This document shows, piece by piece, positions 17,805 through 33,066 of a stretch of DNA of 64,000 nt. Position 1 is the stretch's first letter. Every line of letters begins with the position of its first letter. Source of the stretch: Candidatus Baldrarchaeum yapensis (GTDB lineage: Archaea > Asgardarchaeota > Baldrarchaeia > Baldrarchaeales > Baldrarchaeaceae); NCBI GenBank assembly GCA_016840465.1, contig JAEOSH010000006.1:2886-66885 (forward strand), in the 5' to 3' direction. The position numbers were made by a program, and so were the translations under genes. Below the pieces are notes generated by a model. It had not been told where the DNA came from, ran no database searches, and saw only the letters and a list, made by a program, of their open reading frames with translations.

Positions 17805-18457
17805 GCATTTTTGACATGTTAAGAGCCAAGTACTCCAAGCCGGAAATGGCATTCGGGGAGGTAATAGAATCTTCAACAGTGAAATTCGATGTCTGCGCAT
17901 ATGATCATGAGCATACGCCGCAACACGGCGCATTTGTTCTTGTAAATTGTGACCACATACTGGTCATGGGTGTCGTGATACACTCCGAGATGCGTGCGGC
18001 TCCCGGCCTTCCCCGAATCCCTCAGAGACTCAGAATGACCCGTGATGAACTGAGAAGACGGTATCCTGATCTCAGGGACAATATTCTTGACATTTATACG
18101 GCGGTTGTCGTGGGATATTGTTCACGATCCGGCGTCGTACAAAGTCTTCCTCCCGAGAAGCCCCGCATCCACGACCTCGCCTTCATTTTAGATAAGGATC
18201 ACATAATAGAATTTCTAAACCCACACGGCGAGTGCATTGAAATGAACTATCTCCCCCTCCTAACCGTGCCCGTTGCTGCACCCGAAGTTCCCTTCGTCAT
18301 AGAACGTCACCTCAGATTTCTTGCCGAAATCTTAGATCAAAGCTTCCGATCGGAACTATTTAGGGCGCTCTGTACATCGGTTAATGAACATTTTAAAGGT
18401 GATGCGGCAGCTATGTTGCTAAAAATAGGAAGGAAAACCCTATTGGAGGGGGTATAA
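17801..18457 (+). CDS. uncharacterised 218-aa protein inside the nurA–herA–mre11–rad50 operon
   Basis: Its start overlaps the nurA stop (ATGA) and its stop overlaps the herA start (TAATG). There are no recognisable catalytic motifs, and the N-terminus is beta-rich ('EVIESSTVKFDVCAYD…GAFVLVNCDHILVMGVVIH'). Confidence 0.5.
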   Translation: MSIFDMLRAKYSKPEMAFGEVIESSTVKFDVCAYDHEHTPQHGAFVLVNCDHILVMGVVIHSEMRAAPGLPRIPQRLRMTRDELRRRYPDLRDNILDIYTAVVVGYCSRSGVVQSLPPEKPRIHDLAFILDKDHIIEFLNPHGECIEMNYLPLLTVPVAAPEVPFVIERHLRFLAEILDQSFRSELFRALCTSVNEHFKGDAAAMLLKIGRKTLLEGV

Positions 18458-20223
18458 TGAAATTAGAGGAAGAAAAGGACCCCACATTCGCATTCGTCGT
18501 ACAAGGCTCCTTAGATAAGGGAGTTATCGCGCAGCTAAGACGCGGATATCTAAGTGAGGATGTCCAATGTTCTTCTCTTACCACGATCAAGGGACGCAAC
18601 TTTCTCTTCCTAGGGCTCATCTCAAATATCGAGGTTTCTCGAAAGAGCGTCGTAGATGAAACTGTTAGGCATGAAGGTATCGATAAAAGCGCCGATGAGG
18701 TGGAAAGAGAAGCCGTATTGCACGGGTTGATAAACACAGGTGAGGGTCGCCCAGAAATCAGAATAATACCAATAGCTGTGGCGAGGGAAATCGATGGACG
18801 AGTATGTGTGGAGGGCGCGGATACGATACCATACTACATGGCAGAGGTTAAGGTTCCCGATGAGAGCGAAATAAAGGCGTTCTACACCCCGCAAAGGGGT
18901 GAAGGATTCGTAATAGGATATCCCAAGAGCCCAATAGCAAGCCAACAGATATCATCCGGTGTGCTCATGGATCTTGAGGTGCTGGTTCGTGGGACCTTCG
19001 GAATATTCGGAAAAAGTGGGACAGGTAAAACTTTCTTGGGAAACTATCTCGCGTCTGGAATTGTACTATGGAACAAAAAGAATCTCTTCTCCAAGAAGGT
19101 AAAACTCCTAATATTTGACATGCACTCGGAATATGGAACCCAACTTTTCAGCTCCAGGGGAGATACTTACGGTCCAGGAGTTGCAAAAGCATTTCCCGAG
19201 GAGTTCCTAGTATTTTCCCCGGATCACCAATTTGCAAAGGAGCATTCTCTCGAACCCTTGCAGATAAATGCCGGGAATATAACAATAGAAGATCTGGCAG
19301 CAACAGCTGAAGCCTTAGGATTATCAGAAGCATATCTGAGCCACTTGGAAACGTTCAGGCGGATAGCAGAGGATATATTGGATAAATACCGGAGAGAAGC
19401 AAGTAACAGGGGGATTACCAACTGGTTCCAGTTCATAACATCACTCGACGACGAACTTGGTCCTTCATTAACGAATCCACTAGAAGAGAGACTGAGAAGC
19501 ATATCACCAGGTGCAAAATTCGCCTATACCAGCGGAAGGAGCAGGCTTCGGAGATTGAAGAGATACGAGTTCATAAACTGGTTCGGAACGGGAGCAGACT
19601 CAGTAGACACAATAATATCCGAGTTGCTTGATGGAAAACGCAGCGTTGTAATATCGTTTGGAAGATACGGGGATGATAGAACTGCATACATGTTCATAGC
19701 AAACATAGTTGCGCGCAGATTATGGAGAGAATGCGTCGATAGAATAATGAGCGGAAGAGAGCTCCACTACAGGGTTGTAATTTTTATAGAGGAGGCGCAC
19801 AAGTTCCTAGGACCGGATGTCTACTACATGAGCCCGTTCGGCGATATTGCTAGGGAATTGAGAAAACGCGGCGTTATTCTCTGCGTTATCGATCAAACTC
19901 CATCGCAGATATGTGATGACGTTCGTGGAATGTTATGGAACAAATTTGTGATGTGTCTCGAGAACGAAAAGGACATAGAGGCCGCATCTATAGGATTACC
20001 CTTCCCACATCTCTTTAAACCGGTAATCCAGCGCCTACAGCGGCAGGAAGTGCTCGTATTTGGCGAGGCAATAAACGTCCCGGCTGTTGTTAAGGTTCCC
20101 GAATATAAGGAGAGAATTAAGGAAATGAGAGCCCAGTATCTTGAAATAAAGGCAAAGGAAGCGGAAGAAGAAAAGGTGCGGGAAAAAGCATTCGAAGAAC
20201 TCACGGGGCTACCGGTGGGATGA
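18457..20223 (+). CDS. herA: HerA-family hexameric DNA helicase/translocase
   Basis: 588 aa with Walker A 'FGIFGKSGTGKTFL', Walker B 'VVIFIEEAHKF' and a FtsK/HerA-type ATPase core. It lies immediately upstream of mre11. Confidence 0.85.
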   Translation: MKLEEEKDPTFAFVVQGSLDKGVIAQLRRGYLSEDVQCSSLTTIKGRNFLFLGLISNIEVSRKSVVDETVRHEGIDKSADEVEREAVLHGLINTGEGRPEIRIIPIAVAREIDGRVCVEGADTIPYYMAEVKVPDESEIKAFYTPQRGEGFVIGYPKSPIASQQISSGVLMDLEVLVRGTFGIFGKSGTGKTFLGNYLASGIVLWNKKNLFSKKVKLLIFDMHSEYGTQLFSSRGDTYGPGVAKAFPEEFLVFSPDHQFAKEHSLEPLQINAGNITIEDLAATAEALGLSEAYLSHLETFRRIAEDILDKYRREASNRGITNWFQFITSLDDELGPSLTNPLEERLRSISPGAKFAYTSGRSRLRRLKRYEFINWFGTGADSVDTIISELLDGKRSVVISFGRYGDDRTAYMFIANIVARRLWRECVDRIMSGRELHYRVVIFIEEAHKFLGPDVYYMSPFGDIARELRKRGVILCVIDQTPSQICDDVRGMLWNKFVMCLENEKDIEAASIGLPFPHLFKPVIQRLQRQEVLVFGEAINVPAVVKVPEYKERIKEMRAQYLEIKAKEAEEEKVREKAFEELTGLPVG

Positions 20224-20227
20224 GTTC

Positions 20228-21457
20228 ATGGGGTTAAAGATGGTACATACCGGAGATATACATCTGGGAGCCGTAATACGTGGAATGACGTCCGGAACTG
20301 AGGTTTATAAGCGTCGAATAATGGATTTTCTCGAAAACCTGAAAAGAATCGCGGAGTTTTCCGTAAAAAATGAATGCGACTTTTTGTTGATCTCCGGGGA
20401 TATATTCCACTCTCTGCACCCCAGCGCATTCATCCTCGACGAATTCGCGAAAATTCTGAGATTTGTTTCGAATAAAGGCGTAAAGGTCGTTGCAATTCCT
20501 GGAAATCACGACATGCCAAAGACCGCAGGCGTACCGTCCTATCTTGATGCAATATTTGACGCAGGCGTACCCAACTTCTACTACTTCTCACGCGCCGGAA
20601 CGATAACTTTGAGCGGAAGAGATCCCACACGCACGGTAAAATTCATTTGCATACCATATCTTCCGCCGCAAATTGAAAGACAAAAGATGGAGGAAGCATT
20701 AGAAAGATTTGTCAAAAGAGAGGCATCTGACAGAGAAAACTCCGATTACATAGTTGTGTTATCGCACATTTTGGTACATGGTGCAATTCTAGACGCCTAC
20801 GGCAGAAGAATGAAGGAAATGGGAGATGTAGAGTTTTCCACCTCCGCCCTTCTCACGAGTGAAGTAAGCTACGTGGCCCTTGGACATGTGCATCAACACC
20901 AGGAAGTCGCAAAGAAGGTTGTATACTGCGGATCGATAGAAAGAGTCGATTTCGGTGAGGAAGAGGGAGATAAGGGTTTCTATCTAGTAGAGGAAAGGTG
21001 CGGGGATCTTGAGTACGAGTTCATAAAGCTACAAACACGGCCACTAATCACGATTCCTGGGAGAAGATCCGGAATAGGTGGTGAGTATTTGAATCTTGCG
21101 GTCAGCGATCAACCATCCCGCGCGTTGCTTGAGTTTCTGAAAAATGCAAGAATAGAATCCGAATCGATAGTCAGAATAAGGTACCTGATACGGAGTGATC
21201 AAGTGCTTAACCTCAAACCCATAGAGGAGTTCCTAGAAGAGGTAAAGAGAGTCATGCATTATATACTTGACCCGACATATATCACAATTATTAGCCATAA
21301 TGAAGTATATGAAGACATTGCGGCGAAATCCCTGAGAGAATATTTCATAGAATATATTGACGCCCAAAATTTGCCACCAGAGATAAATAAAGAGAAATTG
21401 AAGGAGTTAGGTCTTGAATACATACAAAGGAAGATAGAAGAGGAGGAATACGGATGA
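20228..21457 (+). CDS. mre11: Mre11 DNA double-strand break repair nuclease
   Basis: Calcineurin-like phosphoesterase motifs 'HTGDIHLG', 'LISGDIFH', 'IPGNHD' and 'ALGHVHQ'. It overlaps rad50 by 4 nt. Confidence 0.9.
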   Translation: MGLKMVHTGDIHLGAVIRGMTSGTEVYKRRIMDFLENLKRIAEFSVKNECDFLLISGDIFHSLHPSAFILDEFAKILRFVSNKGVKVVAIPGNHDMPKTAGVPSYLDAIFDAGVPNFYYFSRAGTITLSGRDPTRTVKFICIPYLPPQIERQKMEEALERFVKREASDRENSDYIVVLSHILVHGAILDAYGRRMKEMGDVEFSTSALLTSEVSYVALGHVHQHQEVAKKVVYCGSIERVDFGEEEGDKGFYLVEERCGDLEYEFIKLQTRPLITIPGRRSGIGGEYLNLAVSDQPSRALLEFLKNARIESESIVRIRYLIRSDQVLNLKPIEEFLEEVKRVMHYILDPTYITIISHNEVYEDIAAKSLREYFIEYIDAQNLPPEINKEKLKELGLEYIQRKIEEEEYG

Positions 21458-23946
21458 ATAGTTGGGGATTTGTGCCAGAGAAACTCATTGCCGAGAACTT
21501 CATAACTTACGATAGATTAGAACTGGATTTCACAAAACTGGGAAGAAGAGTCGCCGTACACGGTCCCACAGGTGCGGGTAAAACAACAGCATTCGTGGAT
21601 GCCCTTACTTTCGCCTTATTTGGTGCAGCATACGAGAAATCTGGAGCCCAGTTCAGGGAAAAACTTGCAAAGGAGGCCGGAAGACCGGTAAAGGTAGAGT
21701 TGACATTCAGAGTTGGGGGTGAACGGTATAAAGTTATGAGAATGATAGATAGCAACGGTAAGTACATAAGGGTTGAATTAAGGAGATTGGAAGAGGGCGC
21801 AAAGCCAATAACGTCGCTGAGAGAGGTCAATCAGAGGATAGAGAAACTACTGGGCATGAATTATAAAATATTTCTCAACACGGTCGCAGTAAGGCAGGGC
21901 AATGTTGCTGAACTCCTACATGGCCTTACACCCTCGGAGTTCAGGCAAATGCTCCTCTTAGCTTTTGGAATCGATTTCAGAAAGATACAGGATGCAGTTA
22001 AGGATGACTACAGACAGGCAGAAGTCGAATACTCGAAAATAACTTCTAGGATAGAAGACTTGCGGAAAAAAATAAAGGAGAAAGACAAGGTTTTGAGAGA
22101 CCTGAACAACCTGAGAAAGGAACTCACGAAACTAAATGAAGATATCTCAAAAGTAAGAAGCAAACTCCAAGAAGTAGAACAAAAGCTTCAGGCGGTACAT
22201 GAGAAATTATCCTCCGCACGTCAGGAGTATAAACTTATGGAAAAGGAGTATCAGAACCTCCAGGATAAAAGGAGGCACCTCGAAGAAAAAATGTCGGATA
22301 GAGAGAGGTTTATGAGGGAATTAAGCAAGTTATCCGAAATTGAGGAAGAATTGAAATTGCTAAGAGAGTCGATATCAAAACTGCGAAAAGCGACCGGAAT
22401 CCTTGCTACCATTAAGGAGAAGAGAAGAGCTCTGAGCCGATATGAAAGAGAGTTGAGGGAGTTGGAAAGAAAGGAGAAGGAACTAAATGGGCTGAGAAAA
22501 CGAATTGAAGATTTGTCATGTGAAATATCAGCTTTAGAAAGCACGGTTAAAAAGATTGAGGATATCGAAAGGAAAATAGACGAGAAAAAAGAACTAAAGA
22601 ACAAACTTAGTGGAAAGAGGGAATATCTGGAGAGAAATTTAGCTGAAATAAAGGAAATGAAACAAAGATCATCAAACGGGGCAATAAAATGTCCGCTTTG
22701 TCTCTCCGAATTGTCCCCACAGAAAGTTGAGGAGGTCATGAGAAGCATAACTCATACACTCACGGAACTAAGAAACCAATTGGAATCGATAAGCAGAGAA
22801 TTAGAAGAGCTATCTAGAGAGCGCGAAACTGTTAAGAAAGCTGAGGAAAAGCTAAATACGCTGTACAAAATGCTTATGAGATACGAGGGGCAAGCAAAGT
22901 CTCTTAGCGAATTTGTAAAAAAGAAGGTTGATTTGCAGGGCGAAAGGGAAAAATGTGGACAGGAATTAAAGAAAATGGAGGAAGAACTCTCGAAACTTAT
23001 AGAGGGGATATGCTCTTACGATGAGGTCGAACAAAAGCTTGCAGAATTAGAAGCAAAGGAGCGGGCTCTCGAAGAGAAAGTCAGAAAGATAGCGGAAAGC
23101 AGAGGAAGAATATCAGAGTTGGAAAAGGAGATAGAGAGGTTAAAAAACGAGATTAGAGAATTGGAGCCTCTAATTTCAGAAGAAATGCTGAGAAGAAAGA
23201 AGATCGAGTTAGATGAATTAATGAAAATGGAAGATGAGTTAAAAAGGCGCAAAAAGGAAATAGAGTCAGAACTCGAGGGCCTGCAGGACAGAATGATAAA
23301 GGTCAGCGCGGACGTTAAAGCACTCGAAAGTAAGTTGAAAGAAATAAAAGATGCCGAAAATGAAATAAAAAGTCTCGAAATAGAGGAAAGAAAAGCACGA
23401 GAAAAACTCATTATGCTCAAAGTATTAAAGGAGAAGGTATTTCATGATCAAGGATTCCCGATGTTCCTACTAAGTCGCTTCATTACTAGACTTCAGGATT
23501 ACGCGAACTATTACCTCAGTAGCATTCTTCCAAATTATCAGATCCGCCTCAAGAGGGTAAAAGAGGGAAGACAAGAGAAAATAAGAGCAACGGTCATGGA
23601 TATTTCAAGGGGATATGATCGCCCGTTATATACATACTCCGGCGGTGAAACCGCGATCCTGGGATTTGTACTGAGATTAGCACTAGCAAAAACATTACTA
23701 GAGGTAAAAGGTGCTAAATCGCCGAGAATTCTGATTTTAGATGAGGGATTTAGCTCTGCTAGCGAGGAATATCGTGCCCAATTGATGAAGTTATTAGCAA
23801 CGCTATCCCAAGAGTTCGAAAATATTATTGTCATTTCACACGTTCCTGACATAAAGTTCAGCGAAATATTCGATAGAATTCTCGAAGTTCAGAGAGACAG
23901 AAGTGGAAGTCGCATAAGGGACGTCACCACATCGGTGAAATCGTAG
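21454..23946 (+). CDS. rad50: Rad50 ATPase (SMC-like, with zinc-hook)
   Basis: N-terminal Walker A '[10 protein letters not shown]', a long heptad-rich coiled coil with a central 'CPLC' zinc hook (about 22689-22700), and C-terminal signature/Walker B '[11 protein letters not shown]…LILDEGF'. Confidence 0.9.
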
Positions 23947-24005: not shown

Positions 24006-24868
24006 TTGGAGCAACTAGGAAAAGTCATTAAGGGAAAGCAATATAAGGAATATGCAAAGCATCTGGTGGCAGGCATGAACGAGGATGAACTGTCAGAAAA
24101 GATATTTTCTGCGGCAAAGATAATAGTTAAATCAAAGAGAGTTGTTGCGCTCACTGGCGCGGGGATATCCGTTGAGAGCGGGATTCCTGATTTTAGGGGT
24201 CCTGTTGGACTCTGGAGAGTTTGCAACCCGATATAGCATCCATACACTATTTTCTCCCAAACCCCGAAGGATTTTGGAAAATGGCCAAAAGCTTGGCAAA
24301 AACCCTCTTTAACGCAAAGCCCAATCCCGCGCACATAGCTCTCGCCGAACTAGAGAAAATGGGAAAGCTTCGATGCATAATAACTCAGAACATAGATTCT
24401 CTTCACCAAAAAGCCGGAAGTAAAAATGTCATAGAAATTCATGGAACTGCTCGAACGGCCACTTGCCTCAGTTGCGGGAAAAAGTTTCGGGATGCGGACA
24501 TACTGAAAATGCTGGATGAAGGGCTCTTGGTTCCGGTTTGCGACAGATGCGGAGGGTTGATAAAAGTAGATGCAGTCTTCTTTGGTGAAAATCTCCCTCG
24601 GGACGCCCTTTCAAGGGCCATGGATGAAAGCATACATTGTGACGCAATGTTAGTCGTGGGTTCTTCTTTAGTCGTTTATCCGGCGGCATATATATCTTCC
24701 TCAATTGGCAAAGGAGCACGGGCAAACATAATTGTGGTGAACTTAGAGCCTACATGGTTCGATAGAATTGCGGATGTTGTAATACATGGTAAGGCCGGAG
24801 AAATCCTGCCCGAGCTCGTTGCAAAAGTCAAAGAGTTGTTGCTATCGGATAATAGCAACACAAGATGA
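24006..24868 (+). pseudogene. Sir2-family NAD-dependent protein deacylase (CobB-like), split by a frameshift near 24220-24240
   Basis: The 24006-24236 ORF has '[24 protein letters not shown]'. A different frame, 24221-24868, continues 'PNPAHIALAELEKMG…IITQNIDSLHQKAGS…IEIHG…CLSCGKKF…CDRCGG'. The whole is colinear with the intact paralog at 54643-55449. Confidence 0.6.
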
Positions 24869-25847: not shown

Positions 25848-26717
25848 TTGAGGAGCTTGAATCGAAATACGATGAATGCTACCGGTTCGATCAACGGGAG
25901 AAAATGCCAGCAGAAAAAAACTAAAATTTTGAGATTGACTGTAATGACACCAAAATATGTGAGGTATGAGGGATTGAGGGTCTGGGTCTCAGCATTCGTC
26001 CTACTTATATTGCTATTCCCGGCACTTATGACATTAATTGCCAGTACCGCTTATGCGCAACCAATTTACCAAACGATAAGTGCAACTTCCGGAGGTGTTT
26101 ACATAGAAGTCCTAGTATTTTCTCGGACACCAGCTTACGAGGGTCAGCATTTCTCCGTCAACCTATATCTTCAAAATTTAATCGTGTTTTCGCCCGAATG
26201 TACAAATATCACGTTACTGCCATCCCCACAAGAAAAATCGATGGAAATCGTAATGATGTCATACGGCAGTTCGGCAACGGCTTCTCAGGTAATGGAAGGG
26301 TCTCCTGAGGAGAAATACAGTGACGTGTATGTTGAGAACGAGGACGAGATCTTTACTACTACGGGTGTAAGCATCAGAAGAAGAGTGTTTAATGCGAGTC
26401 AGCCCATTATCGAAAAGGAACTAGGAGAGTTCTGGGGAATGGTAAGACATGGAACCGTAGGCAAGCAGATAAAACTGCATATCGACCTCTTATTTGAAGT
26501 GAGATATAAGAACGGCTCATCCACCATCCTAGAGGTAAAGAACGGGGATCCTATAACGATAATCGTGATGCCGGGATCGGTAACGATCCCAATGGAACTC
26601 ATAATCTTCTTTGCAACGGTTTCCATTCTCATGATACTATTCCCGATCGTAGTTTTAGTCATTAACAGGTGGAGAATGAAAAGGATAAAGGAGAGGAGGT
26701 TATTGTATGCACAGTAA
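25848..26717 (+). CDS. membrane-anchored extracytoplasmic protein (N-terminal signal/anchor, C-terminal TM plus basic tail)
   Basis: Hydrophobic 'VWVSAFVLLILLFPALMTLIASTAYAQ' near the N-terminus. The middle domain is rich in NxS/T sequons. It ends with the TM 'LIIFFATVSILMILFPIVVLVI' followed by 'NRWRMKRIKERR'. The probable start is the internal Met near 25944. Confidence 0.45.
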   Translation: MRSLNRNTMNATGSINGRKCQQKKTKILRLTVMTPKYVRYEGLRVWVSAFVLLILLFPALMTLIASTAYAQPIYQTISATSGGVYIEVLVFSRTPAYEGQHFSVNLYLQNLIVFSPECTNITLLPSPQEKSMEIVMMSYGSSATASQVMEGSPEEKYSDVYVENEDEIFTTTGVSIRRRVFNASQPIIEKELGEFWGMVRHGTVGKQIKLHIDLLFEVRYKNGSSTILEVKNGDPITIIVMPGSVTIPMELIIFFATVSILMILFPIVVLVINRWRMKRIKERRLLYAQ

Positions 26718-27444
26718 TGAGCTAAGATGTGGAGGGATGCTTGTATTAGTAGTAATAATGATGGTTATAGCCTTCATTCCGCTCACCATCGTGGACGCTT
26801 ACGGTGCAAGCAATAATGTGGTACTGGCATATAAGGGCGAGGTCGGGAGGCCCGTTGAAGGTAAAAACATAACAACGTACCCCGCTCACGCATACATTAC
26901 GATAAAGATGCAAGCAAATGGCACAATATTAGTCGAGGAGGTATCGGAAGGAATTCCTCCGGCAATATTGATGATCACCAAGAAGATATATTTGGTAGAG
27001 AGCAATAGCAGAAAGATAGTTGGTACGGAAGAGTATGTACTTTGGTGGATCGATCCTCACGGCCTGAAAAATGGGGATAAGGTCAAGATACTGAATTTCA
27101 CGTTCGAGGTTGTGGGAACATCAAGTTATTTCGTCATGAACATGCTAAGGAGAGTAGTTGAACTTCGGCATATTGACGAAAATGGTACAAAGTATGCGGC
27201 TAAATATGATGAGAAAAGCGGGGTTCTAATAGAATATAGGATCAAGAATTACGCGGAAAATTATTCTCTAGTCATTATACTGGAGTCGGCGTACGGGGTT
27301 GAATTGAGCGTTGATATTCTGTACTATGTGATGCTTGCCCTTCCGTTCATTATTGTTCCGGCGATAATAACTTATTTCATCACAAGGCCGCGCCTTCCGA
27401 AAGTGGGAGGGATAAGAAGTGAAGGAGGCGGTGATAAAGGTTGA
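26707..27444 (+). CDS. membrane-anchored extracytoplasmic protein (paralogous architecture to the previous ORF)
   Basis: N-terminal hydrophobic 'MLVLVVIMMVIAFIPLTIVDAYG', several NxS/T sequons, and a C-terminal TM 'ILYYVMLALPFIIVPAIITYFI' plus basic tail. It overlaps its neighbours, indicating an operon. Confidence 0.45.
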   Translation: MHSNELRCGGMLVLVVIMMVIAFIPLTIVDAYGASNNVVLAYKGEVGRPVEGKNITTYPAHAYITIKMQANGTILVEEVSEGIPPAILMITKKIYLVESNSRKIVGTEEYVLWWIDPHGLKNGDKVKILNFTFEVVGTSSYFVMNMLRRVVELRHIDENGTKYAAKYDEKSGVLIEYRIKNYAENYSLVIILESAYGVELSVDILYYVMLALPFIIVPAIITYFITRPRLPKVGGIRSEGGGDKG

Positions 27445-28360
27445 AGGTTTGGTGAAATTCTACGGGAAGATAAGGGCACTTGCTGGAGTGACATTTGAGG
27501 TAGAGCATGGGACGTGTTTCGGCTATCTTGGACCCAATGGGGCTGGGAAGACTACGACTATAAGAATTCTCCTAGGGTTAATAAAACAGGACGCAGGCAG
27601 GGCATTTATTCTTGGAGAGAAAGCAGGATCGAGGAAGGCTCTAAGAAGGGTGGGTTACCTCCCAGAAAGACCCGGATTTTACGATCATTGGACTCTCCTT
27701 GACTATATGAGGTATATAGGAACTCTTTATGGAATGGCCCTACGAGAGGCTAAGAGAAGGGCTGAAGAACTCTTAGAGTGGATAAAATTGGGCGATTGGG
27801 CATACGAAAAAATAGGTAATCTTAGTGCGGGCATGCGCCAAAGACTCGCTTTCGCGCAGGCCTTCATTAACGACCCAGACTTGCTGATACTTGACGAACC
27901 CACATCAAATTTGGACCCAATGGCGCGCATCGAAATTCTTGATAAGATAAAGTCCGCGGTCAGGGAGGGGAGAACAGTCCTGTTCTCGAGCCATGTTCTT
28001 CCCGAGGTGGAAAGAGTTTCCGACCATATAGTGATTATCCACCGCGGGCTAATACTCGCCCAAGGGAGAATCGAAGACCTGCGGAGACTTCCTAACACCT
28101 ACAGCATAAAAACCGATAATCCTCAAATCTTAGTAAATGAATTAAAGAACCTGTCCTACGTGAAAAATGTAAGTATAAAAGATAGAGAGACGTTGTTTGT
28201 GGAAGTTGAGGATGTCAGCAGATTCGAAGGAGAGATTGCGAGAATTATCGCCAAATGCGGAGTTAAATTGAAGCGTTTTGAACCCGTAGGTGAATCCCTC
28301 GAAAACATTTATGTTAGAATTGTACGCGAGGGAGGGATTCCGGTTGGTGGACAGAGATGA
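27419..28360 (+). CDS. ABC transporter ATP-binding protein (ABC-2/CcmA-like exporter type)
   Basis: Walker A 'GPNGAGKTTT', Q-loop, signature 'LSAGMRQRL', Walker B 'LLILDEPTSNLD' and H-loop 'SSHVL'. It has a GTG start. Confidence 0.85.
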   Translation: MKEAVIKVEGLVKFYGKIRALAGVTFEVEHGTCFGYLGPNGAGKTTTIRILLGLIKQDAGRAFILGEKAGSRKALRRVGYLPERPGFYDHWTLLDYMRYIGTLYGMALREAKRRAEELLEWIKLGDWAYEKIGNLSAGMRQRLAFAQAFINDPDLLILDEPTSNLDPMARIEILDKIKSAVREGRTVLFSSHVLPEVERVSDHIVIIHRGLILAQGRIEDLRRLPNTYSIKTDNPQILVNELKNLSYVKNVSIKDRETLFVEVEDVSRFEGEIARIIAKCGVKLKRFEPVGESLENIYVRIVREGGIPVGGQR

Positions 28361-28405
28361 ACTTAAAAACAAAATTGAAGTGTTTGGCAGGTTACTTTTG
28401 GAGGA

Positions 28406-29261
28406 AATGAGGATCTCGTATAGAAGCAAGAGGTTTTACATATACCTCATCCTATTCTTGCTTCCGCCGCTTTTCATGAGCCTGTGGTACTTCATCTTCC
28501 AGTATCACATCGACATTCAGACAATCGACCTGAAAATATTCATGCAGGGAGAAGGAGCCAAGGAGGACATACTGACCGAAAGAGTGAATATCGTAAAGGG
28601 AATGAGGGGAATAAGTTCCGGGCTTTACATGAGTGGCCTGATGGGGCTCCTTATAGCGGTGATTTCATCCGAATGGGTTGCAGGTGAGCGGCATAGTGGA
28701 ATGCACAACATAACTTTTTCGAAATTCATGAGCAGGAGCGGGATACTTCTTGCAAGGTACATCGCGTTCCTCATACACAGCGCCATTTTCGTAACCATAG
28801 CGATACTATGGGTGGGGGTGCTAGTATTGACGCCGTTAATAAATGTAGGCCTGTTCTTTGAAGCATTTAGCAAGACGGCCAACATACTGCTGATAATGAT
28901 AGGTGTAACCATTCTATGCATACTGGCATACACGTCCCTAGCAACTCTCTTCTCAGTGCTGTCTCCGCGGCCAATGATAGCGATCATCATGATGCTAATC
29001 TACACAATGGTGATTGTCAGCATTGTCAGCGTAATCGCCTTAATATTTGGACAACAAAACCCAGCTCTTTATAATCTCATGTACCTCTCATTAAGCAACG
29101 ACGGAAGCGTCGTAATGGAACACTTCATCCTCGGCGAGGAATTCTGGAAATCATACATAATTCCGCAGGACCCGTACGTTGCGCTATCGGTGCTGATCGC
29201 TGTATCGGTAGGTGGGCTTGTACTGGCATGCCTGTTGTTGGAGACTAGGGAATTTTCATAA
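28406..29261 (+). CDS. ABC-2 family transporter permease
   Basis: Six hydrophobic helices with the first periplasmic loop after TM1, the typical ABC-2 topology. The ATG at about 28406 follows 'GGAGGA' (track ORF opens at 28290; an ATG at about 28310 is also possible). Confidence 0.55.
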
Positions 29262-29326
29262 GTCACTGAAAGCTAAGTACATTTCAAGGGCAGTGTGCAC
29301 AATGACATTTTATCCGGTGATACGAG

Positions 29327-31354
29327 GTGCCAATACTTTTCTTTATTGCTACTCACATGATGCTACTGCTCTTCGTAGTCCCAGTACTCATTCCGAAAAC
29401 CTTCGGAATTCCCCCCTTAACTATAAAATTTTGGCGTAGAATCTTTCTATCTACTGCTATCCTCCTTGAGGTTCTTGTGAACATACAACTTTTACCACTT
29501 TACATATGGCATGATGCCCCCTACGGTTCGCCAGAGTTGATCCTCAGATCTTCATTTTTGTTGCTTCTTTCACTCTCTCTCATGAAGTTTTCCTTCTCTA
29601 AGTATTACTCCGAAAAATTAGAAATCGCGGAAATGGCAAGACGTGAGGTTTTATTCCGAAAAATAAGTCCGTTCATTGTGTGGGGGGCCGTGGGATCGAT
29701 AGTATTCATAATTCTGGCATTTGTCGTGGTATCGTTATTGCTTATTCCGGCGTACATGTGTTACTACTTCCTCGTATTCATAAGAACACTATTTGCTCCC
29801 GACATAATATCAAAATTTGCTCCATTGCGTAAAAAGACAATAATGCAAGTGGTGTCGATGTTCTTCCTCATATATTTCGCCATAATTTCGACATTAGTTA
29901 TATTTCCGCCTTACTGGCAAGCACAACACTTTAATAATACGGTTAAAATTGAAAGATCGTCACCTTTTACTTCAGAAGTATCTCCCGCAATGGTTCGCCT
30001 GATCGACAAGAATCTTGCCACGTCTATCATGAGCAGGTACATTTCGGAGTTCGGTTCAAACGCAAATCTTGGAACGCCTCATATAGCCAAAAATGGCAAC
30101 TCTATTGTGTGGATAGCACCTGTTTACCCGGCTAATGTCTTTGCTCAGAACTACATAATTGGATTCATAATCATAAAAGCGAATGATCCTATGAGCCCTC
30201 CCGTGATTTTAAAGGAAAAATTCTACGTTGGTGATCTGCTTTACGGCGGTCACAATGTGCACATTAAGAACTTCTTAGAAGATACTACGGTGAGCCGTTC
30301 AAGCGCGTACTTCGCGTTTGATAAGGATGGCAAAATAGTTCTGGTGGTATTAAGAGTCCGTATGACACCGTTGACCTATGAGATCCCAGGAGAGGTCTTA
30401 ATATACGACCGTAACGGAAAAGTTATCGGAAGATATGATATTACAAACGCGCCCGACTGGGTACCGCAGGTTTATGACCAGAAACTCGTCGAAGCAACAG
30501 TCCACAATATTGGCCAGTATTATAGAGGGAATAAAGTGGATCCATTTGCCGGGGGGCTTCTTACAATACCCGCGTCAGAAGACCGATTCGAAATTACGGA
30601 ATCCCCTCAGAACATCATAAATCCCGACACAAATTGCGTTGAAACGATAATTTATGTTCATCCTCTCGGTAATGATAGAACTCTGGCAGGGATTTTCCGT
30701 ATATTCAAGGGCGGCATATACTTTTACGACTTCAGAATGCTCAGTTTAATTAGCGCTAGGGTTGCACATGATTATGCCGAATCCCTTTTTCCCAAACCAG
30801 CGGTAGGAGAATATTTCGCAACTGCGGGGATGCTTTATCCCGTTAAACATCCCCTCACCGGAGAAGCTGTGTGGACATGGTTTGTCCCAATTTATTGGAG
30901 GAAAAACGCGACTATATTACTAAGAGGCCTCGTTCTAATAAACGCTCACAACATGAGTTACTTTTATTACGGCATCATCAGGGAGAACGAACATGGTTGC
31001 GAGTTCGTTGCGCGAGTTCTTGAAGGTTACAAAAGAGTGTTGAAGCAGGCCATTAAATACGAATATATCATTAATTATGCGAACGAAACCCACATTTCTG
31101 GATACTTTAGAGTTTTGAACGTATCGAGGTATGTAAGTGGAGGGGAAACCCACATAGTCCTCTGGATAAACTACGAAAACGTATCCTTCGTTGAGGCAAC
31201 TGCAAGTGACCTTAAGAACAAAACCGCGTGGTATGAACTTTTGTTTACGCGCCCCGGTGATGTTGTCCTCATAACCGCGGAGAAAGCAGATGGATACTGG
31301 GTCCTTAGAGAATTCGATAACCTTGAGATAACACCGGAAGGACGCGTGCATTAG
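29327..31354 (+). CDS. large polytopic membrane protein with a ~480-aa extracytoplasmic C-terminal domain
   Basis: About 6 N-terminal TM helices, then a soluble domain with several N-glycosylation sequons. It is last in the ABC-2 operon. Confidence 0.45.
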   Translation: MPILFFIATHMMLLLFVVPVLIPKTFGIPPLTIKFWRRIFLSTAILLEVLVNIQLLPLYIWHDAPYGSPELILRSSFLLLLSLSLMKFSFSKYYSEKLEIAEMARREVLFRKISPFIVWGAVGSIVFIILAFVVVSLLLIPAYMCYYFLVFIRTLFAPDIISKFAPLRKKTIMQVVSMFFLIYFAIISTLVIFPPYWQAQHFNNTVKIERSSPFTSEVSPAMVRLIDKNLATSIMSRYISEFGSNANLGTPHIAKNGNSIVWIAPVYPANVFAQNYIIGFIIIKANDPMSPPVILKEKFYVGDLLYGGHNVHIKNFLEDTTVSRSSAYFAFDKDGKIVLVVLRVRMTPLTYEIPGEVLIYDRNGKVIGRYDITNAPDWVPQVYDQKLVEATVHNIGQYYRGNKVDPFAGGLLTIPASEDRFEITESPQNIINPDTNCVETIIYVHPLGNDRTLAGIFRIFKGGIYFYDFRMLSLISARVAHDYAESLFPKPAVGEYFATAGMLYPVKHPLTGEAVWTWFVPIYWRKNATILLRGLVLINAHNMSYFYYGIIRENEHGCEFVARVLEGYKRVLKQAIKYEYIINYANETHISGYFRVLNVSRYVSGGETHIVLWINYENVSFVEATASDLKNKTAWYELLFTRPGDVVLITAEKADGYWVLREFDNLEITPEGRVH

Positions 31355-32310
31355 ATCAAAAGTTTAAGGAAGTTCCTCAGCGCGCTTATATCCCCATATA
31401 TAAACAGCACGTCACCCTCTTTTACACATATGTTTCGATCCCACAACCATTCGCTTCCTCTTCGCACAGATAACACTTTTACACCTGTCTGATTTTCAAT
31501 GTCAGCAATCTTCAATCCGTTAATTTTGGCATGCCTGTGAATCTTGATCACGAAAGGTTTCGGAAATTCCGATATTATGTCAGTAAAACACCCGAGTATG
31601 TATTCTATTACGGCGATTTTGCTCGTGCTGAGAATCTCGTCGGCAAATCCCCCTTTCTTCAAAATTTCCGCAATGTCATCGTTATAGATTCTAACGATGA
31701 TCTTCGCGTTTGGATTCAATTTTCTGATGCGCTCTGCAATCACCGGATTTACGTAATCATCATTAATCGATATAATGACCGCTCGTGCGTGTTCCACATT
31801 CGCTTCTCTTAAGACAGATGTGAGAGAGGCGTCGCCGAATATCACCGGTACACCCTTACTGATCAAATTGCTCACAAATTCGTTATGTTCCCTATCTCTC
31901 GGAAGTACTATTAGCACAAACGGTATTCCTAACTCGAGAAGTGCACTGACAACTCTACGCCCCAAGTGACCACATCCTATCACAACTATATGATCACGCA
32001 TGTGCTGTGCCCTTATTCTGGCTTTTTCATCGTAGTGCAATGTTCGAATTTCAACAAATGCCATTATAGGAGACATTTCTATCAGAAATATTATTAGGAG
32101 GCAAACACACTCCCCGATCGTGTGAGGCTCGTAGTTTAAAGAGAGAAACAGAACCAGGTTCTCGAATGTAAGCTCGACTCCAGAAGATAATGCTACCACC
32201 ACGAACAGCACTGCCAATGTTGAGAAATATATCAATGCGGTTCTTATTAGTCTGAGAAAGTAGAGAATCTCAAGGATTAAAATGTAAATATTCCTTAGGA
32301 GGCTCTTCAT
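31351..32310 (-). CDS. membrane protein with cytoplasmic TrkA-N (RCK, Rossmann) and TrkA-C domains
   Basis: 'IVVIGCGHLGRRVVSALLELGIPFVLIV' is an NAD-binding RCK motif. A C-terminal TrkA-C-like domain is present, as are 3-4 N-terminal TM helices. There is no TVGYG selectivity filter. Confidence 0.6.
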   Translation of the reverse strand: MKSLLRNIYILILEILYFLRLIRTALIYFSTLAVLFVVVALSSGVELTFENLVLFLSLNYEPHTIGECVCLLIIFLIEMSPIMAFVEIRTLHYDEKARIRAQHMRDHIVVIGCGHLGRRVVSALLELGIPFVLIVLPRDREHNEFVSNLISKGVPVIFGDASLTSVLREANVEHARAVIISINDDYVNPVIAERIRKLNPNAKIIVRIYNDDIAEILKKGGFADEILSTSKIAVIEYILGCFTDIISEFPKPFVIKIHRHAKINGLKIADIENQTGVKVLSVRRGSEWLWDRNICVKEGDVLFIYGDISALRNFLKLLI

Positions 32311-32343: not shown

Positions 32344-33066
32344 TCATCCTATTATCTTCTTTGGGTGGTAGCAATTCCCCCATATAAGAAGCGCCCTATT
32401 AACCTTATAAAATGGTCCGCTTGCAAGATTCTCATCGTACATTTTCAAAAACAGCCTTCTGACAATATTCGTCCCACTAACATAAGGGCTGATCGCGCCT
32501 GCGCCCTTAAGTTCAAGAATTAATGTACCTGCATAGGATCGCGGCAGACCCGAGAGTTCACATCCTTTCACTATCGCGTTTGCCGATATTAAACCAAATA
32601 CCGAATTTTTGATAGCGTACTCAAATATTCGTGGCACATAACTGGCAAATTTATCTCCAATATCATCAAAATACCATACCAGTGCATCCCGGCAATCTAA
32701 GTACCCCTCGGTAATAAGTAACCTCAGAAGGTATCTGATAATCTTAGGCATTGAAAATCGTTCGTTTACAGAACACCTAAATGCCACATTTTCCCACTCA
32801 AGGCAGTCTCCTGAAATTCTCTCTTCGCTGAAGAAAGCGTTCCATTCCCATCCCAGGAAGATGATGGTATTAAATGCCTGAAGGACATTAAATTGTGAAA
32901 CATTTTTGCGCACTTCCGTTAAGATTTGACCTGCGGTTAATGTTCCATTTTTCACAAAAAGATTGAGAACCTTGGCGAAAGTCACCTTAATGGGTTCTTC
33001 CTCCTCGCTCAAATACTTCCTGCAGATTTCATTGTATATGATCTGGTGATTGTTTGAGGTCACCAC
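32344..33066 (-). CDS. hypothetical protein (240 aa), possibly a helical-repeat protein
   Basis: ORF only, upstream of and co-oriented with the RCK-domain gene. The Trp-rich helical sequence gives a weak resemblance to HEAT-like DNA-alkylation-repair proteins. Confidence 0.3.
   Translation of the reverse strand: MVTSNNHQIIYNEICRKYLSEEEEPIKVTFAKVLNLFVKNGTLTAGQILTEVRKNVSQFNVLQAFNTIIFLGWEWNAFFSEERISGDCLEWENVAFRCSVNERFSMPKIIRYLLRLLITEGYLDCRDALVWYFDDIGDKFASYVPRIFEYAIKNSVFGLISANAIVKGCELSGLPRSYAGTLILELKGAGAISPYVSGTNIVRRLFLKMYDENLASGPFYKVNRALLIWGNCYHPKKIIG

Follow-up and report, generated by a model that had tools for sequence, protein, structure and literature searches.

A predicted translationally coupled operon for an ABC-2 exporter and two near-orphan membrane-anchored proteins in the Asgard archaeon Candidatus Baldrarchaeum yapensis

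Introduction

A few ATP-binding cassette (ABC) modules of the ABC-2 type have anchored extracytoplasmic partners. In the LanI/LanFEG layout, anchored beta-rich binding proteins stand beside an ABC-2 pump, and the structures of NosDFY (7O0Y and related) show an ABC-2 module that acts mechanically on an extracytoplasmic protein and does not pump a solute. GldG is also extracytoplasmic, with hydrophobic segments near both termini. GldA and GldF are believed to be its partners in an ABC transporter (PMC5682007). Asgard genomes commonly encode ABC-2 (Drug Exporter-1-like) systems, which are mostly uncharacterised according to a published survey (PMC7997004). Here we analysed a locus of the Asgard archaeon Candidatus Baldrarchaeum yapensis in which the genes for two small membrane-anchored proteins (P1 and P2), an ABC ATPase, an ABC-2 permease and a membrane protein of 675 amino acids (aa; gene 5) follow one another. 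The window, i.e., the whole stretch of DNA that was analysed, comprises 64,000 nucleotides (nt) of contig JAEOSH010000006.1 (positions 2,886 to 66,885; assembly GCA_016840465.1). We consider it about an even chance (probability of roughly 0.5) that the locus encodes a type V exporter together with two lineage-specific accessory surface proteins, P1 and P2, with gene 5 as a separate neighbour.

Results

Evidence for a translationally coupled four-gene operon

The original prediction, made from the sequence of the window, had placed five co-directional genes between 25848 and 31354. The reading of the open reading frames (ORFs) indicated that all five are real and end where they had been placed, and gene callers recovered them on three independent assemblies (ENA ERZ650341, GCA_029856505.1 and SRR14699971). 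The genes had also been described as overlapping, which holds for the first four (11 nt between P1 and P2, 26 nt between P2 and the ATPase, and 17 nt between the ATPase and the permease), whereas gene 5 follows only after a gap. The start of the permease, previously put at about 28406, had to be moved upstream to 28344/28347. The start of P1 is uncertain among three codons, of which the gene callers picked the ATG at 25872 (Table 1).

Each of the three internal starts (P2, ATPase and permease) is preceded, at a distance of exactly 7 nt, by a strong GGAGG-type Shine-Dalgarno (SD) motif that lies inside the upstream gene. Given these overlaps and the SD motifs at constant spacing within the upstream genes, we conclude that a co-transcribed and translationally coupled unit of P1, P2, ATPase and permease is well supported by the sequence. 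A TATA-box-like element, TTATAAAAAA, is found 30–39 nt upstream of the P1 ATG at 25872, and a homologous contig (L009, see below) has TATTAAAA about 40 nt ahead of the start of its P1 homologue; TTATAAAAAA is thus a candidate promoter of the operon. A scan of the locus for bacterial-type promoters and terminators gave results at chance level, the Rfam scan of the window returned no match, and the repeats at the locus were trivial short ones only. GC content is flat over the locus and the base composition carries no island signal, and a genomic-island reading was rejected on the basis of the flat GC content.

The ATPase and the permease resemble DrrAB-type exporters

The ATPase matched PF00005 in Pfam (E 1.7e-28, 100.3 bits; cut-off 25 bits), and the permease matched PF12679 (ABC2_membrane_2, NosY-GldF type) with 34.2 bits, over the cut-off of 27.2 bits. 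Judged by these matches, the two genes are an ordinary type V (ABC-2) exporter, and the ABC-2 pair recognised in the original prediction was thereby confirmed. The translation of the ATPase contains Walker A (GPNGAGKT), the signature motif (LSAGMRQR), Walker B (LLILDEPT) and the H-loop (SSHV), and its C-terminus has a weak match to DrrA1-3_C in Pfam (E 7e-4, under the cut-off). Its best NCBIfam match was TIGR01188 (drrA; E 8e-64) with 215.8 bits against a cut-off of 312.45 bits, followed by GldA (E 2e-62) with 211.2 bits against an equivalog cut-off of 402.6 bits; the score to the lantibiotic-protection family TIGR03740 (E 4e-49) was 167.2 bits against a cut-off of 309.75 bits. The nearest relatives in the PDB were the nucleotide-binding domains of ABCA7/4/1 (E ~1e-56), and then TM0544, NosF (E 4e-37) and Rv1218c.

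The permease has about six hydrophobic segments, and no match to it was obtained in NCBIfam or by PDB sequence search. In the genome contigs of the GTDB species-representative collection, the permease scan revealed no relative, and the ATPase scan detected only remote bacterial ABC ATPases (24–35% identity) that were of no use for synteny. The pair is most readily compared with the DrrAB/COG1131 exporters, relatives of the eukaryotic ABCA proteins. Shared with these are the ABC motifs, the DrrA-type C-terminal domain, the ABCA and bacterial ABC-2 relatives in the PDB, and a separate gene for a six-helix permease directly downstream of the ATPase gene. The locus differs from them in that the ATPase scores under the DrrA cut-off, the permease is of the ABC2_membrane_2 type, and two anchored proteins are coupled upstream.

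P1 and P2 share an unusual architecture

P1 and P2 have the same layout, i.e., a signal/anchor, an ectodomain of about 170–175 aa, a C-terminal transmembrane (TM) helix and a basic tail (the tails of the two proteins are NRWRMKRIKERRLLYAQ and TRPRLPKVGGIRSEGGGDKG). Hydrophobic segments occur once at the N-terminus and once at the C-terminus of each protein and nowhere between, and P1 and P2 are the sole 2 of the 52 ORFs in the window that are built in this way. The common architecture had been predicted correctly; the two proteins had further been called paralogues, a reading that was rejected because both BLASTP (E 0.63) and hhalign (probability 0.3%, E 0.19) were negative for a similarity in sequence or profile between them.

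N-glycosylation sequons are frequent in both ectodomains, with 3 in P1 (1.7 per 100 aa) and 5 in P2 (2.9 per 100 aa), which is 7–12 times the level of the window ORFs (0.25 per 100 aa). The excess in P2 over composition-matched shuffles was significant (p 0.003), and two of the sequons of P1 and one of P2 (NGT) are kept in their homologues. From these counts, the ectodomains of P1 and P2 are likely to be N-glycosylated.

No credible match to P1 or P2 was found in Pfam, NCBIfam, PADLOC, PHROGs or the PDB sequences, and the best matches of the non-ABC proteins, including gene 5, had E values of 0.01–0.1. This agrees with the earlier statement that none of the non-ABC proteins belongs to a family that can be named, as none of them matched Pfam or NCBIfam. 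Homology of P1 or P2 to S-layer, type IV pilin or substrate-binding proteins was likewise not detected in Pfam, NCBIfam and the PDB sequences, nor, for P1, in a fold search with its model (see below). A pilin reading was rejected, as the proteins lack a canonical class III signal and have a C-terminal TM. As for anchoring by archaeosortase through PGF-CTERM, the NCBIfam matches of P1 and P2 were noise only, and no PGF is present in the sequences ahead of the TM (...PGSVTIPMEL... in P1, ...YGVELSVDIL... in P2 and ...SPMTLPMEL... in the P1 homologue).

An AxA-QP site is conserved in P1 (AYA-QP) and in its homologue (AHA-QP), and the P1 signal is probably cleaved between AYA and QP. As signal-peptidase sites typically look like this, a type I membrane topology is probable for P1. 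The AlphaFold2 (AF2) model of P1, built from two sequences and spanning window positions 25944-26717, has a pLDDT of 73 (80–90 in the core) and shows a beta-sandwich of 12 strands as well as a disordered loop and a long helix at the C-terminus. Foldseek searches of this model against the PDB returned nothing at E ≤ 1e-3, and the best TM-scores (0.2–0.38) were to assorted beta-sandwiches. SPCS3 (SPC22/23), a subunit of the human signal peptidase complex, came first (E 3e-3, TM-score 0.22–0.29), followed by cohesins and POLDIP2; none of these matches is evidence of homology. A lower match was to 8rjc_5, a chain of the ribosome-Sec61-TRAP complex (E 0.24); together with SPCS3, the TM-scores ranged from 0.22 to 0.36. 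The likeness of the model to SPCS3 and 8rjc_5 most likely reflects the generic shape of a beta-sandwich plus a TM helix.

In the comparison of the two P1 sequences, the TM and the tail were the most conserved parts (52–53% identity, against 43–45% in the ectodomain), with a Glu, two Pro and a WR motif kept. This is a weak hint that the C-terminal helix of P1 may be more than an anchor and may make specific contacts within the membrane.

The P1-P2 pair is conserved in a second lineage

In an index of 5.8 billion proteins, P1 had one homologue (P0011, 41–42% identity), and P2 was found only in its own cluster. The exact sequence of P2 is labelled 'Candidatus Baldrarchaeia archaeon' (Asgard) at NCBI, which overturns the affiliation with Thermoplasmata that had been assumed. 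The contig L009 (1,086 nt) carries the P1 homologue, and the ORF that follows overlaps it by 11 nt and is a homologue of P2, of which a part is present (29% identity over 95 aa, pairwise E 2e-8). The P1-P2 junction of this contig has the identical GGAGAGGAGG, the 7-nt spacer and the 11-nt overlap. Given this repetition of motif, spacing and overlap, we conclude that P1 and P2 are conserved as a pair, together with their coupling. Scanning metagenomes with the P1 alignment revealed no further locus, and a degenerate DNA pattern for HGTVGK[QE]IK gave three chance matches and no new P1-P2 locus. On these searches, P1 and P2 are near-orphans, found in two lineages.

With 42% and 29% identity to their sole homologues, P1 and P2 evolve fast in the manner of surface proteins; in addition, they resemble no transporter accessory family and the fold of P1 is a generic beta-sandwich. 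These features would fit ordinary lineage-specific surface-coat glycoproteins that share a promoter, and no functional interaction, with a housekeeping drug or lipid exporter, given how many ABC-2 systems Asgard genomes contain, most of them uncharacterised (PMC7997004). We consider this explanation somewhat unlikely, as tight coupling by overlaps and SD sites at 7-nt spacing is usually a mark of stoichiometric co-production, and as P1 is better conserved in its TM and tail than in its ectodomain.

Comparison with ABC-2 modules that have extracytoplasmic partners

The layout of P1 and P2 would be that of GldG if their signals are not cleaved. They are, however, much smaller (about 250 aa, against about 560 aa for GldG) and have no match to ABC_transp_aux at E ≤ 1. 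Moreover, two small proteins are encoded upstream of the transporter genes here, against one large protein downstream in GldAFG, and the archaeal host lacks a gliding machinery. The likeness to NosDFY lies in the permease, which is of the NosY type (PF12679), and in the ATPase, which has NosF among its closest solved relatives. In contrast, Pfam searches of P1, P2 and gene 5 and inspection of the neighbourhood revealed no NosD beta-helix and no NosL or nitrous-oxide reductase genes, and the P1 model is a beta-sandwich and not a beta-helix.

The locus also resembles LanFEG/LanI, in that an ABC-2 pump is combined with membrane-tethered beta-rich surface proteins and the ATPase resembles the lantibiotic-protection subfamily (TIGR03740, E 4e-49). 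This gene layout, together with a narrow and patchy distribution as is typical of immunity genes, could indicate that the four genes serve self-protection or immunity, with a membrane-active peptide or toxin as the target; the pump would expel the agent from the membrane and the ectodomains would bind it at the surface. Such a role is quite improbable. With 167 bits, the match to TIGR03740 falls far short of the cut-off of 309.75 bits and scores lower than those to DrrA and GldA, there is a single permease gene against two in LanEG, and no lipobox is present. Linked biosynthetic or regulatory genes are also missing; the nearby genes (TauE, SIR2, Rad50/Mre11, TrkA and a helicase) include none of biosynthetic, regulatory or mobile-element function. 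The PADLOC matches were generic ATPase matches only, and the base composition shows no sign of an island.

Gene 5 belongs to a widespread family found elsewhere without the transporter

The 675-aa protein consists of about six N-terminal helices and a domain of about 480 aa, as had been predicted; both the hydrophobic segments and the AF2 model indicate this layout, and the domain is beta-rich. Its K/R-rich loops alternate as expected if the C-terminal domain is extracytoplasmic, and the pLDDT of the ectodomain is 80–90. The protein has no match in Pfam or NCBIfam, and no Pfam domains were found in 10 members of its family. Eight close homologues were detected, with a strongly conserved ectodomain and the motifs SEFGSN and W[YF]VP[IV]YW. 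Searched with a profile, 1.84 billion representatives yielded a family of 322 clusters. Its named members belong to Bathyarchaeia, Atabeyarchaeum, Hermodarchaeota and Njordarchaeota, and every one of them is annotated as hypothetical.

The distant part of this family extends to a Mesorhizobium protein and to phages. The remote member P0099 gave tblastn matches, with E values as low as 1e-31, to genes annotated as 'membrane associated protein' in the Lactobacillus phages 521B and SAC12B, to ORF25 of phage vB_Lcr_AB1 and to a sequence of an Enterococcus phage whose record lacks annotation. In two phage records (L031, 4893-6569; L032, 3911-5614), the gene is located amid recombination, DNA-binding and resolvase/transposase genes, and in vB_Lcr_AB1 the relative of gene 5 is upstream of the terminase genes. 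Alignment of the archaeal family to ORF25 with hhalign gave a probability of 50% (E 1.7e-4, 326 columns). The 675-aa protein of the window itself had no match in IMG/VR and INPHARED. A fold search of its model against the PDB returned TM-scores of ≤ 0.2 to propeller-type enzymes, along with a local OB-like match at the C-terminus, and the model matched A0A6G5YLZ4 (588 aa) in BFVD, a database of viral proteins, over its full length (E 7e-22, TM-score 0.48/0.54).

Gene 5 lies on the same strand as the operon and follows the permease after 65 nt, in a gap that contains an SD-like GGTGAT site (29316-29321) and no recognisable terminator, and its large ectodomain is rich in sequons. On this basis, all five genes could act together as one machine that exports or assembles a surface structure, as the original prediction had suggested. 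Six other genomic contexts (L004, L005, L007, L008, L026 and L027; a closed Asgard genome is among them), with homologues of gene 5 that range in identity between 56% and about 33%, largely refute this, as none of them has ABC-2, P1 or P2 neighbours. Given these contexts, we conclude that gene 5 is independent and not a conserved part of the system. The 322 clusters of its family, against two lineages for P1 and P2, and the remote members in bacteria and in early regions of Lactobacillus and Enterococcus phages likewise make a single five-gene machine highly improbable. Of the original proposal, a coupled unit is supported for four genes and not for five; the roles suggested for it, in the assembly of a surface structure or in envelope stress or immunity, may or may not apply.

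Surrounding genes

The features of the locus are listed in Table 1. Directly upstream and on the same strand is a DNA-repair cluster (18457-23946, plus strand) of HerA (DUF87), Mre11 (Metallophos) and Rad50 (830 aa, SbcC-type). It is followed by a gene for a SIR2-family deacetylase in two pieces, ORFs that overlap and are read in different frames (24006-24236 and 24221-24868, plus strand; 76 aa and 215 aa). All three independent assemblies have the identical split, which may stem from a genuine frameshift or a pseudogene, from programmed frameshifting, or from a gene that is split by nature. On the other side of the locus, a gene for a membrane-anchored TrkA-N/TrkA-C (RCK) protein (31351-32310, minus strand) is convergent with gene 5, with a stop-stop overlap of 4 nt. 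Beside it, a 240-aa protein (32344-33066, minus strand) had no Pfam match in our scan; a 222-aa gene call at the same place is assigned to PF27374 (AF_2141) in a precomputed table.

Table 1 Features of the locus, with positions in the 64,000-nt window.
Feature	Position	Strand	Remarks
TATA-box-like element TTATAAAAAA	25833..25842	+	candidate archaeal promoter, read from sequence
P1	25872..26717	+	alternative starts 25848 (TTG) and 25944 (ATG)
Shine-Dalgarno site GGAGAGGAGG for P2	26690..26699	+	in the 3' end of P1, 7 nt ahead of ATG 26707
P2	26707..27444	+	ORF, hydrophobic segments, sequons
Shine-Dalgarno site GGGAGGG for the ATPase	27405..27411	+	within P2, 7 nt ahead of GTG 27419
ABC ATPase	27419..28360	+	DrrA/CcmA/ABCA-like type, C-terminal DrrA-type domain
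Shine-Dalgarno site GAGGGAGGG for the permease	28328..28336	+	within the ATPase gene, 7 nt ahead of TTG 28344
ABC-2 permease	28344..29261	+	start TTG 28344 or in-frame GTG 28347
675-aa membrane protein (gene 5)	29327..31354	+	after a 65-nt gap

Discussion

In the reading that we prefer, a type V exporter with two lineage-specific accessory surface proteins, the ATPase and the six-helix ABC2_membrane_2 permease would form a DrrAB/ABCA-like exporter, presumably as a 2+2 complex. P1 and P2 would be exported by their N-terminal signals and display beta-rich ectodomains of about 170 aa, held in the membrane by the C-terminal helix with its basic cytoplasmic tail. We infer an association of the two proteins with the transporter, in which they would serve as stoichiometric accessory subunits on the outer face of the permease. 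Transport would be outward, and P1 and P2 would either take over the exported substrate, which is probably hydrophobic or amphipathic, or be moved by the ATPase cycle. By analogy, their role could be modelled on that of GldG with GldAF, NosD with NosFY, or CcmE with CcmAB. The adjacency of gene 5 would be a genomic accident.

Several observations weigh against this proposal. Co-transcription is the sole tie of P1 and P2 to the transporter, and the L009 contig stops 297 nt into P2, short of the position of any ABC gene. Neither P1 nor P2 matched Pfam at E ≤ 1, and in Pfam and NCBIfam they match no known ABC auxiliary family. The sequon excess over shuffles is marginal in P1 (p 0.09), and the description of both domains as sequon-dense therefore held for P2 and only marginally for P1; the cytoplasmic ATPase likewise has 3 sequons. 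The contrast in conservation between the TM and the ectodomain of P1 comes from two sequences only. Finally, gene 5 may be co-transcribed with the operon in this genome.

A bolder version of the proposal is that P1 and P2 constitute a heteromeric, glycosylated and extracytoplasmic module that docks on the permease via the conserved C-terminal helices, and that the whole is an ATP-driven mechanotransducing machine, specific to Baldrarchaeia, which shapes or maintains the cell surface. Its logic would be similar to that of NosDFY and GldAFG, with unrelated sequences. We regard this version as unlikely; if it were true, the weak matches of P1 to SPCS3 and to the chain of the Sec61-TRAP complex would be worth a second look in the Asgard context.

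The wider impact of the operon is limited, as P1 and P2 occur in two known lineages only and no substrate can be inferred. A more generally useful by-product of the analysis is the gene 5 family, which is unnamed and without a Pfam model, comprises at least 322 clusters, and is distributed across Asgard and Bathyarchaeia archaea, bacteria and phages. Should P1 and P2 indeed be accessory subunits of the exporter, they would be a sequence-unrelated addition to the few ABC-2 modules with anchored extracytoplasmic partners, and the first such case in Asgard archaea, a group with poorly understood cell surfaces.

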